The notes beneath the pieces were generated by a model, which saw only the letters and a program-made list of their open reading frames with translations, did not search any database and was not told the origin of the DNA. A stretch of 64,000 nt of DNA from Escherichia coli (lineage in GTDB: Bacteria; Pseudomonadota; Gammaproteobacteria; Enterobacterales; Enterobacteriaceae). This document shows positions 58,236-59,899 of this stretch, in pieces. The position numbers were made by a program, and so were the translations under genes. Within the stretch, counting starts at the first letter, position 1; each line of letters begins with the position of its first letter. The stretch is from the NCBI RefSeq assembly GCF_029227855.1, contig NZ_CP074356.1. One strand, written 5' to 3'.

Positions 58236-59048
58236 ATGCTCATTGATGATATTGATTTTGCGGACCTTTACCTGCAGCAACTCAAACTGGCCCACCGCAC
58301 AGAAAAAACGCCGGCTCACTGGGATCAACGGGCGGAAAAAATGGCGGAAAATTGCGCCTCGCCTACGGACAGCTACCTGCAACAACTGACCTCAAAAATT
58401 GACCTGCAAGGCGCGCAAACCTTATTCGATATGGGCTGCGGACCGGGTACCGTATCGCTGGCGCTGGCGGCCAAACTCACGACGATTTATGGCGTTGATT
58501 ACAGTCAGGGGATGCTGAACGTTGCCGCCCGTCGCGCCGCCGCGCTAAAGGCAGACAATGTCCACTGGATCCAGCGCGCCTGGGAAGAGGACTGGAGTGA
58601 CCTGCCACGCTGCGATATTGCCGTGGCTTCCCGCTCCACTCTGGTGGCTGATATGCGCCAGGCAATGAGCAAACTGAATAATCAGGCACGGCTTCGCGTC
58701 TATACGACTCATCTGGTCAGCACCTCGTTCGTCTCTCCAGCCATTCAGCGGGCGGCTGGTCGGGAAGTGATCGAATTACCCAACTATATCTTTGCGCTCA
58801 ACGTCCTGTATCAGATGGGAATTTATGCTCACGTTGATTTTATCCGTGGACAAAATTGCCAACAGGATAACAGCACCTGGGAACGTTTTGAGCAGAACGT
58901 CAGCTGGAGTCTGGGCGCGCTTAACGACGATGAGCGTGAGCGGTTATATCGCTGGTATCAACAACAAGATGCTCGTGCCCTCGCCCCTGCCAGCCGCGAC
59001 TGGGCGCTCATCTGGTGGGATAGCGTACCGCAAGAGGCACTGCGATGA
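58236..59048 (+). CDS. Class I SAM-dependent methyltransferase
   Basis: 270 aa; motif I LFDMGCGPGTVSLALA; AAGGAA SD 7 nt upstream; stop overlaps the next gene's start (ATGA). Confidence 0.7.
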   Translation: MLIDDIDFADLYLQQLKLAHRTEKTPAHWDQRAEKMAENCASPTDSYLQQLTSKIDLQGAQTLFDMGCGPGTVSLALAAKLTTIYGVDYSQGMLNVAARRAAALKADNVHWIQRAWEEDWSDLPRCDIAVASRSTLVADMRQAMSKLNNQARLRVYTTHLVSTSFVSPAIQRAAGREVIELPNYIFALNVLYQMGIYAHVDFIRGQNCQQDNSTWERFEQNVSWSLGALNDDERERLYRWYQQQDARALAPASRDWALIWWDSVPQEALR

Positions 59049-59899
59049 TTTTCCTTTCTCAGGCACAAATCGATGCGTTACTTCTGGAAGATATCCAGGG
59101 CGGTGACCTGACCACGCGAGCATTAAATATTGGACACCAGCATGGCTATATAGAGTTTTTTCTCCGTCAGGGCGGCTGCGTCAGCGGCATTTCTGTCGCG
59201 TGTAAGATGTTAACTACGCTGGGATTAACTATTGATGACGCGGTCAGCGACGGTTCACAAGCGAACGCGGGTCAGCGGCTAATCCGTGCGCAAGGTAATG
59301 CCGCAGCACTTCATCAGGGATGGAAGGCAGTCCAGAATGTGCTGGAGTGGAGTTGCGGTGTTTCTGATTATCTCGCTCAAATGCTGGCGTTACTTCGTGA
59401 ACGTTACCCTGATGGCAATATCGCCTGCACCCGAAAAGCAATTCCGGGCACCCGCTTACTGGCCTCGCAGGCAATTCTGGCTGCCGGAGGACTGATTCAT
59501 CGTGCCGGATGTGCGGAAACCATATTATTGTTTGCCAACCACCGCCATTTTCTTCATGACAATCAGGACTGGTCAGGCGCAATCAATCAGTTACGTCGCC
59601 ACGCACCCGAGAAGAAAATAGTTGTTGAAGCCGACACGCCGAAAGAGGCAATCGCCGCGTTACGCGCGCAACCAGACGTACTTCAGCTCGACAAATTTAA
59701 TCCGCAACAGGCAACTGAAATTGCGCAAATAGCACCGTCGCTGGCTCCTCACTGCACGCTGGCTCTGACCGGCGGAATTAATCTGACAACACTCAAAAAT
59801 TACCTCGACTGCGGCATTCGCCTTTTTATTACCTCCGCGCCTTATTACGCGACACCGGCTGACATTAAAGTCAGTCTGCAACCCGCAGCCTCTATTTAA
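59045..59899 (+). CDS. ModD-family protein (quinolinate/nicotinate-nucleotide phosphoribosyltransferase NadC-like fold)
   Basis: 284 aa; segments [46 protein letters not shown] and [25 protein letters not shown] align by eye with E. coli NadC segments [46 protein letters not shown] and [25 protein letters not shown]. Confidence 0.7.
   Translation: [284 protein letters not shown]

Follow-up and report, generated by a model that had tools for sequence, protein, structure and literature searches.

The window analysed here, a 64,000-nucleotide stretch of Escherichia coli DNA (contig NZ_CP074356.1), carries a 6.4-kb island (window 55133-61944) of six genes, all on the plus strand, which we believe to be probably concerned with molybdenum or tungsten (Mo/W). 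Our main subjects are two neighbouring genes in it: one for a class I S-adenosylmethionine (SAM)-dependent methyltransferase of an uncharacterised family ('yc73', 58236-59048), recognised by generic class I matches and an AlphaFold model, and one for ModD (59045-59899), a paralogue of the quinolinate phosphoribosyltransferase (QAPRTase) NadC, recognised by TIGR01334, Pfam and an AlphaFold model. In front of them lie a periplasmic binding protein of the Peripla_BP_2 class with a twin-arginine signal, TRRRF (55469-56491; RefSeq, a PDB match and the RR motif of its orthologues), a FecCD-family (type II) ATP-binding cassette (ABC) permease nearest to Haemophilus influenzae MolB (56491-57471; PDB match HI1471, RefSeq) and an ABC ATPase of 252 amino acids that has no regulatory C-terminal domain ('fepC' in the older naming, 57468-58226; NCBIfam, RefSeq). 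Behind them follows a TonB-dependent outer-membrane receptor ('prrA', 59925-61895), assigned by family-level similarity only. RefSeq has the identical six genes with identical boundaries. The operon is tightly packed: from gene to gene there are overlaps of 1 and 4 bp, then a gap of 9 bp, a further overlap of 4 bp and finally a gap of 25 bp.

The original prediction singled out the methyltransferase and ModD as a translationally coupled pair, and the coordinates it gave are all correct. The two reading frames share the ATGA at 59045-59048, and the methyltransferase does follow the ATPase after 9 bp, since the last base of the ATPase stop is 58226 and the ATG of the methyltransferase begins at 58236; within this gap there is a Shine-Dalgarno-like AAGGA motif. 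A 4-bp overlap is the commonest kind in bacterial operons, hence the ATGA is ordinary on its own. The pair is nevertheless strongly conserved: among 54 species with both genes, 52 keep an ATGA or GTGA overlap. By the overlap criterion, the two genes would be translationally coupled.

The most informative part of the island lies upstream of its first gene. A perfect TTGACA, read directly at 55398-55403 (plus strand), is the candidate -35 element of the operon promoter. Just downstream of it, centred about 36 bp 5' of the binding-protein start, is a predicted operator for the molybdate-responsive repressor ModE, CGCTATATg-TGTAAG-TATATAGCG (55421-55444; no strand assigned). The E. coli ModE consensus has been given as ATCGNTATATA-N6-TATATANCGAT (PMC545781). 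Against this consensus (CGnTATATA-N6-TATATAnCG) the site agrees at 15 of the 16 specified positions, and its architecture is the same as that of the K-12 modA operator, CGTTATATT-GTCGCC-TACATAACG. There is no second such site in the whole window, where 0.07 would be expected by chance. Two oddities of annotation touch this sequence: the longest-ORF start of the binding protein (ATG at 55427, the RefSeq start being at 55469) falls within the palindrome, and a consensus scan flags the palindrome (55420-55445) as a terminator-like hairpin. Both are side effects of the operator sequence. The ModE site of this island may have been listed earlier in the literature.

The site is not peculiar to E. 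coli. Using a 10-sequence ModD alignment we collected 80 ModD loci from different species, a sample that is biased towards gamma-proteobacteria, and mapped the genes in them by tblastn. Among these loci the six-gene operon is conserved in Escherichia, Citrobacter, Raoultella, Klebsiella indica, Enterobacter, Yokenella and Serratia, and likewise in Symbiopectobacterium, Proteus, Morganella, Providencia, Pectobacterium, Erwinia and Pantoea. Of 45 orthologous operons, 43 have a ModE box scoring at least 13/16, which just 1.3% of random 310-bp windows attain, in front of the binding-protein gene, and in 40 of the 45 it is centred 28-53 bp 5' of the start of that gene. When the upstream regions of 12 genera are aligned, the TTGAC element and the ModE palindrome are the sole conserved parts. 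Shewanella yunxiaonensis has two boxes that match at 16/16 (5176-5199 before the binding-protein gene and 8943-8966 before the receptor gene of locus L088). A published survey of Shewanella regulons includes one for ModE, with no targets named in its text. ModE boxes precede modA-like or ModD genes in Pasteurellaceae, Photobacterium, Cedecea and Yersinia, and a box is found ahead of a methyltransferase-ModD pair in 4 of the 6 Edwardsiella loci examined. Ahead of that pair no ModE box is seen in E. ictaluri, in Leminorella or in an AT-rich metagenomic organism (L091).

Up to now the island has been spoken of in connection with iron. The cluster, which has already been named prrA-modD-yc73-fepC (PMC1890555), was first seen on a pathogenicity island of uropathogenic strain CFT073, as far as Guyer et al. 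1998 is cited in PMC1890555; it is also S-loop#83/OI#55 of O157:H7, where it is specific to certain O157:H7 lineages (PMC1890555), and genomic region GR 9 of the avian strain BEN2908 (PMC12928451). The label "possibly mediating iron uptake" accompanies it (PMC12928451, PMC1890555), and in RefSeq the binding protein appears as 'iron ABC transporter substrate-binding protein'. In the literature searched we found no functional study of the cluster. The island is widespread: it is present, at 95-100% identity, in 2149 of 5426 complete E. coli genomes (~40%). The chromosomal order is dhaKLM - treA - island - ymgE - ycgR - emtA. K-12 has no island; at its exact site, between ymgE and treA, there is ycgY instead (441 bp; 4161-4601 of L095), and therefore chromatin immunoprecipitation (ChIP) or transcriptome data from K-12 cannot cover the ModE regulation of the island.

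Would the labels be right, the operon would take up an iron chelate (siderophore, heme or citrate) under Fur-type control, with ModD and the methyltransferase as unrelated passengers. The names speak for this, as do weak NCBIfam matches of the island proteins to FecB, FepB, IsdE and to siderophore and heme receptor families. However, every such match is far under its cut-off, and the promoter offers nothing to Fur. Upstream of the operon the best Fur-box match is 13/19, in a region of 32% GC, no match with three or fewer mismatches occurs in the locus, and Fur-box scores over the orthologous promoters equal the background of random windows; what is conserved there is only the TTGAC element and the ModE palindrome. 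The permease and the company that the genes keep elsewhere, both described below, also point away from iron. In our opinion this explanation is very improbable. Because the operon carries a conserved ModE operator, we regard the island as most likely a Mo/W system and not an iron system. One Fur-like site does exist in the window, GAAAATGATAACCAGTATC at 44364-44382 (16/19 against the Fur consensus, the sole such site in the 64 kb); it is flanked by two ORFs, one ending at 43999 and the other starting at 44841, and is unrelated to the island.

The original prediction treated the transporter as a generic one, and here we disagree with it: the ModE operator, the MolB-like permease and the links to ModC, NifQ and TOBE genes all point to molybdenum or tungsten. 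Indeed, the best PDB match of the permease is HI1471, the MolB subunit of the molybdate/tungstate importer of H. influenzae (2nq2, 222.8 bits), which is ~48 bits above FhuB (175) and further above HmuU (168) and BtuC (146). Compared by tblastn with their Pasteurellaceae homologues, the permease is ~40% and the ATPase 37% identical, and the binding protein ~26%. The best PDB match of the binding protein is 4pag (92.8 bits), which carries only the molecule name 'Periplasmic binding protein'. Its N-terminus (window 55469-55560), MSLTRRRFTQIL, is a twin-arginine (Tat) signal, and the RR motif (TRRxF, NRRQF, QRRML and similar) is retained in most of its orthologues, from Citrobacter to Shewanella; the export of a folded binding protein is therefore implied. 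As regards the receptor, the NCBIfam models for siderophore and heme receptor subfamilies score below their cut-offs, and its PDB matches are confined to the plug region. We also considered the Yersinia Yiu system as a relative and rejected it, since YiuA is not among the PDB matches of the binding protein. No Rfam match, to a cobalamin riboswitch or otherwise, was obtained for the locus.

ModD itself belongs without difficulty to its named family. It matches TIGR01334 of NCBIfam at 501.6 bits (cut-off 178.85) over model positions 1-277 of 277, and nadC (TIGR00078) at 135.4 bits, below the cut-off of 198.4. The original prediction called it NadC-like on the strength of two stretches that resemble E. 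coli NadC by eye. Both likenesses are genuine: the NadC strings quoted there are present in K-12 NadC, and BLASTP gives 28% identity at E = 1e-15. Hence the family part of that claim stands, with QRPTase_N and QRPTase_C as the Pfam domains, while an identification with NadC itself does not, and E. coli has a separate nadC. In the PDB we found no ModD structure. The AlphaFold model (pLDDT 97) has the type II phosphoribosyltransferase fold, an N-terminal sandwich with an alpha/beta barrel, and Foldseek aligns it over its full length to the QAPRTases 2b7n, 4kwv, 7xgm and 1qpr (TM 0.86-0.89, rmsd about 2 Å, 22-27% identity).

We compared the active sites using alignments of 74 ModD representatives with 27-49% identity to the E. 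coli protein. As reference we used the Mycobacterium tuberculosis QAPRTase, in which quinolinate is reportedly bound by Arg105', Arg139, Arg162 and Lys172 (1998 structure papers) and phosphoribosyl pyrophosphate (PRPP), magnesium and ribose presumably by Lys140, Glu201, Asp222 and a GG loop; this numbering fits the alignment. In 68 to 73 of the 74 representatives ModD retains Thr-Arg-Lys129-131, His-Arg152-153, His166, Glu195, Asp/Glu216 and the Gly-Gly loop. Here Arg130-Lys131 correspond to Arg139 and Lys140 of the M. tuberculosis enzyme, His152-Arg153 to His161 and Arg162, Glu195 to Glu201, and Asp/Glu216 to Asp222. The counts for the PRPP site are 73/74 (Lys131), 72/74 each for Glu195, Asp/Glu216 and Gly243, and 68/74 (Gly244). 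Thus the loss of PRPP-binding residues that would have made ModD a non-catalytic scaffold is not seen, and since the PRPP-holding and catalytic residues are kept, ModD is not an obvious dead scaffold.

The acceptor side is different. Of the cationic quinolinate set ModD keeps Arg130 and Arg153, so that the set is incomplete. Lys172 of the M. tuberculosis enzyme is replaced by Phe163 in 71 of the 74, Glu-Arg105 by Trp93-Lys/Arg94 (Trp93 in 69), and family-wide there are a Leu to Gln214 change (74/74) and an Asn to Lys217 change (69/74). Because the quinolinate pocket is remodelled in this way, by Lys172 to Phe and the other changes, ModD is not NadC. Judged from its residues, it looks like a live PRPP-binding protein with an altered, more aromatic acceptor site.

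The genes that accompany ModD in other taxa are consistently molybdenum-related. In Pasteurellaceae, Photobacterium, Yersinia alsatica, Gilliamella and others it comes after genes for ModA-like, ModB-like and TOBE-less ModC-like proteins, behind a ModE box, and in several taxa it adjoins genes for ModE. Fusions occur as well: P0262 and P0266 join ModD to a ModC/WtpC-like ATPase, whereas in protein P0315 and in L094 (8803-10230) its partner is NifQ, with both domain orders represented, and the fusion gene of L094 lies directly 3' of a methyltransferase gene, with a TOBE (molbindin) gene next to it. The presence of ModD beside ModB/ModC-like importers in taxa where neither methyltransferase nor receptor accompanies it argues for a role of ModD on the metal side, not on that of an organic carrier. 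In this connection we note that a Methanococcus fitness preprint uses the name 'modD' for a putative ATPase; that gene was left aside.

These same neighbourhoods allow a purely regulatory role, in which ModD would be a non-enzymatic ligand sensor docked on the ATPase, replacing the trans-inhibition exerted by TOBE domains and gating import according to cytoplasmic molybdenum or PRPP status, with a separate role for the methyltransferase. The ATPases adjoining ModD, of about 200-250 amino acids, are indeed without a TOBE domain, ModD takes the TOBE position of ModC in the P0262 and P0266 fusions, and its oxyanion- and phosphate-binding residues are conserved. However, a mere sensor would not be expected to keep the catalytic carboxylates Glu195 and Asp/Glu216 together with the whole PRPP set as in active enzymes, and ModD also occurs where no transporter is nearby (Edwardsiella, L091) and fused to NifQ. 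We consider a sensor function, and with it an independent methyltransferase, quite improbable.

The methyltransferase is more difficult to place. Its Pfam matches are to generic class I domains only (Methyltransf_25, _31, _12 and _11). Motif I, D65-M-G-C-G-P-G, and the acidic D88 are invariant in the family; the invariant residues include D65, G67, C68, G69, G71, D88, W116, W120, C126, D127, S132-R133-S134-T135, R154, Y156 and T158. In the AlphaFold model (pLDDT 90.9) strands alternate with helices in a Rossmann-like manner. The nearest structures are AtmM, phosphoethanolamine and alkaloid N-methyltransferases, MitM, TleD and TmtA, with TM values of only 0.5-0.6 and at most 19% identity. It was a possibility in the original prediction that the enzyme would cluster with rRNA or tRNA methylation, and this is not what we find: it falls in no rRNA or tRNA methyltransferase family, RlmD (33.5 against a cut-off of 183.55) and HemK (33.6 against 115.5) being matched in the SAM-binding region only, and the top 50 Foldseek matches contain no rRNA, tRNA or protein methyltransferase, nearly all of them being small-molecule, lipid, natural-product or unannotated enzymes. 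Judging by the model, it resembles small-molecule methyltransferases and is not an RNA methyltransferase. A corrinoid or tetrapyrrole substrate, suggested by weak CpaM, CbiT and BtuC-like matches, was considered and dropped: the CpaM and CbiT matches cover the SAM-binding core only, and the idea is also contradicted by the missing cobalamin riboswitch and by the permease, for which MolB beats BtuC.

Its distribution is instructive in a different way. The methyltransferase is present in 5 of 5 non-enterobacterial TonB/type II transporter loci sampled, three of which are without ModD. In Shewanella (L088) the order is binding protein - permease - ATPase - methyltransferase - receptor, with no ModD; in metagenomic relatives it is receptor - DUF2478 - binding protein - permease - ATPase - methyltransferase, some being without ModD and one having the NifQ-ModD fusion. 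In the Pasteurellaceae loci examined we detected no methyltransferase homologue. Thus the modules recombine: ModD goes with any Mo/W importer, and the methyltransferase mainly with the TonB/type II importer. Those in our gamma-proteobacterial sample are preceded by ModE boxes of the E. coli type. Methyltransferase and ModD occur alone, with no transporter, in Edwardsiella (five species), Leminorella and the AT-rich organism of L091.

Several smaller observations belong to the same comparison. The small DUF2478/NTPase_1 (P-loop) gene recurs in non-enterobacterial operons (4556-5101 of L089, 4639-5190 of L094, 10940-11461 of L093), has no NCBIfam match and is missing from the E. coli island. Some Edwardsiella tarda encode a protein of 315 amino acids in which an ABC_tran part is fused to the methyltransferase (P0231; related loci L003, L028 and L045), which suggests that the stand-alone pair of Edwardsiella is a remnant after transporter loss. 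In Citrobacter koseri (L019) the permease is undetected and the binding protein and ATPase match only in part, with methyltransferase, ModD and receptor intact, so that the importer genes of this operon may be in decay. Finally, a 3.2-kb contig binned as a metagenome-assembled genome (MAG) of Collinsella sp. (L008) encodes an ATPase, a methyltransferase and a ModD that are 98-99% identical in protein sequence to those of E. coli (tblastn), which is probably a binning error rather than a transfer to an actinobacterium.

Taking these lines together, we believe that the island is probably a TonB-dependent operon for the acquisition of molybdenum or tungsten, induced by starvation for them. ModE-molybdate would repress it, so that it would be on when molybdenum (or tungsten) is scarce, and the receptor and the MolBC-like ABC importer would then bring a Mo/W species into the cell. 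The methyltransferase and ModD, presumably made in fixed proportion via the ATGA overlap, would both process the arriving cargo. ModD is likely to act at the cytoplasmic exit of the importer, because the Mo/W importers with which it is found belong to two unrelated ABC architectures and because it is sometimes fused to the ATPase or to NifQ; there it may capture, activate or hand on the metal, possibly by PRPP-dependent chemistry. The methyltransferase would most likely modify the non-oxyanion part or the chemical form of the cargo (an organic chelator or a thio-form) and so make the metal usable. Mo/W as the cargo and the reactions of both enzymes are inferred from sequence, structure prediction and gene context, and we are much less sure of how the two enzymes share the work than of the claim about the system.

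The chemistry could also be directed at a carrier. According to this alternative, which is the idea of the original prediction with the metal now specified, Mo/W arrives on an aromatic or heterocyclic chelator, a molybdophore. This carrier would lose its chelating site through N-ribosylation of a pyridine- or quinoline-carboxylate-like ring by ModD and methylation of a hydroxyl or thiol by the methyltransferase, and a metal that reduction is unable to release would thereby be set free. In its favour, bulky chelates are the usual cargo of TonB receptors and type II importers, the methyltransferase is of a small-molecule or natural-product type, and the overlap of the two genes is conserved in 52 of 54 species. 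ModD has kept its PRPP-site residues, and with Trp93 and Phe163 its acceptor pocket has become fit for a planar ring; a quinoline-2-carboxylate has been proposed as a molybdophore (PMC7356571). However, ModD with importers that have a ModA-like binding protein, and neither receptor nor methyltransferase, points to the metal, and so do its fusions to NifQ or an ATPase, rather than to a ligand as the target. In Shewanella and other taxa the methyltransferase is found where ModD is missing, so there is no obligatory two-step pathway, and no genes for the biosynthesis or export of a chelator are found among those of the island. That the pair itself makes a secreted chelator is unlikely, as there are two enzymes only, no exporter, and a phosphoribosyl product would be cytoplasmic. 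On balance, destruction of a chelator by the pair seems to us doubtful. We would be still more reserved about the full version, in which a pathway defined by TonB and ModE scavenges Mo/W as a complex (a 'molybdophore' or a thio-form) and releases it by yc73 methylation together with PRPP-dependent ribosylation of the carrier by ModD; this appears unlikely.

There are also points that weigh against an assignment to Mo/W uptake as such, and they should be stated. E. coli already has the high-affinity ModABC. The set of TonB receptor, Peripla_BP_2 protein, FecCD permease and ATPase is complete, and it is generic, being common to B12, heme and MolBC-A systems; the FecCD, Peripla_BP_2 and receptor families are the same as those serving iron chelates. 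The binding protein matches MolA (HI_1472) weakly and locally, at 34 bits over residues 214-286 (~70 residues). The repression of the operon by ModE is a reading of the consensus match and of its conservation, and in the metagenomic loci L089-L092 no ModE box of the E. coli type is found; the organisms concerned may use a different ModE motif. The change of Lys to Phe makes the ModD pocket less cationic, which argues against molybdate itself as the acceptor, and the methyltransferase has no obvious substrate in a simple oxyanion. The occurrence of methyltransferase and ModD without a transporter in Edwardsiella, Leminorella and L091 blurs the proposed split of roles. Finally, MolA was reported to have a low affinity, about 100 uM (PMC3928620), and therefore the natural cargo even of the reference system is uncertain.

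In regard to novelty, the genes, the ModD family and MolBC-A are already known. What appear to be new are the conserved ModE control of a widespread "iron" island, the TonB-dependent architecture and the recurrent methyltransferase. To our knowledge, ModD, which received its name in Rhodobacter in the early 1990s, has been an orphan of unknown function ever since. In the compact operon described here it has a constant partner enzyme and a genetically tractable host, E. coli, so that its function can be tested directly. The label "iron uptake" has been propagated in databases and papers, and it is wrong if the molybdenum system is true. Molybdoenzyme-dependent anaerobic respiration and formate oxidation drive the blooms of Enterobacteriaceae in the inflamed gut, which are suppressed with tungstate; a second route for Mo/W that depends on TonB, if true, would bear on both the blooms and their suppression, and the E. 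coli lineages with the pathway would include pathogens, with other Enterobacterales having it too. That a methyltransferase should go with the metal importer at every sampled transporter locus, in taxa far apart, is without precedent as far as we know, and this recurrence hints at unknown metal-handling chemistry. If Mo/W were released by modification of a carrier, it would be without counterpart in iron-siderophore systems and would give ModD its first biochemical function.

It remains to compare the island with systems that are better known. The first is MolBC-A of H. influenzae (HI1470-HI1472), likewise built around a type II (BtuCD-like) ABC importer. The E. coli operon differs in having a TonB-dependent receptor and a dedicated methyltransferase, and in having ModD directly in the type II operon; its binding protein is only a distant relative of MolA. 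In H. influenzae modD (HI1473) is found, with ModB/C-like genes, in HI1469-HI1475, which is described as a secondary molybdate transporter (PMC3928620). ModE boxes were seen in the related Pasteurellaceae loci L075-L080, all from organisms other than H. influenzae. With the ModABC/ModE regulon of E. coli the island shares the operator architecture, with the centre at about -36 as compared to about -31 at modA, and, as predicted from the operator, the logic of repression when molybdate is available. ModABC differs in being a type I importer of the free oxyanion, with no outer-membrane receptor and no accessory enzymes.

With NadC (EC 2.4.2.19) ModD has in common the full two-domain fold and the TRK, HR, NH, Glu, Asp and GG motifs; it is unlike NadC in its low identity (22-28%), in the changes of the quinolinate site and in a molybdenum-related context rather than one of NAD biosynthesis. 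Its own family, TIGR01334, includes the ModD proteins of Rhodobacter capsulatus modABCD and Geobacter modDABC, all of them linked to molybdenum transport genes. An R. capsulatus modD mutant reportedly had its molybdenum requirement changed only about 4-fold. A ModE site has been described for the modDABC operon of G. sulfurreducens (PMC545781). The Rhodobacter and Geobacter proteins go with type I ModABC, whereas the partner of the island ModD is a methyltransferase, within a TonB/type II system. A further link is to NifQ, which donates molybdenum for the synthesis of the FeMo-cofactor: one NifQ-ModD fusion of another organism is encoded in an operon that also has the receptor, the binding protein, the permease, the ATPase and the methyltransferase. 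In E. coli, which is without nitrogenase, ModD carries no NifQ domain. FecABCDE, FhuABCD and BtuBFCD share with the island the architecture of an outer-membrane receptor, a class III binding protein and a type II ABC importer. Unlike them, the island has a ModE operator, no Fur box or B12 riboswitch, and two cytoplasmic enzymes that have no counterpart there.

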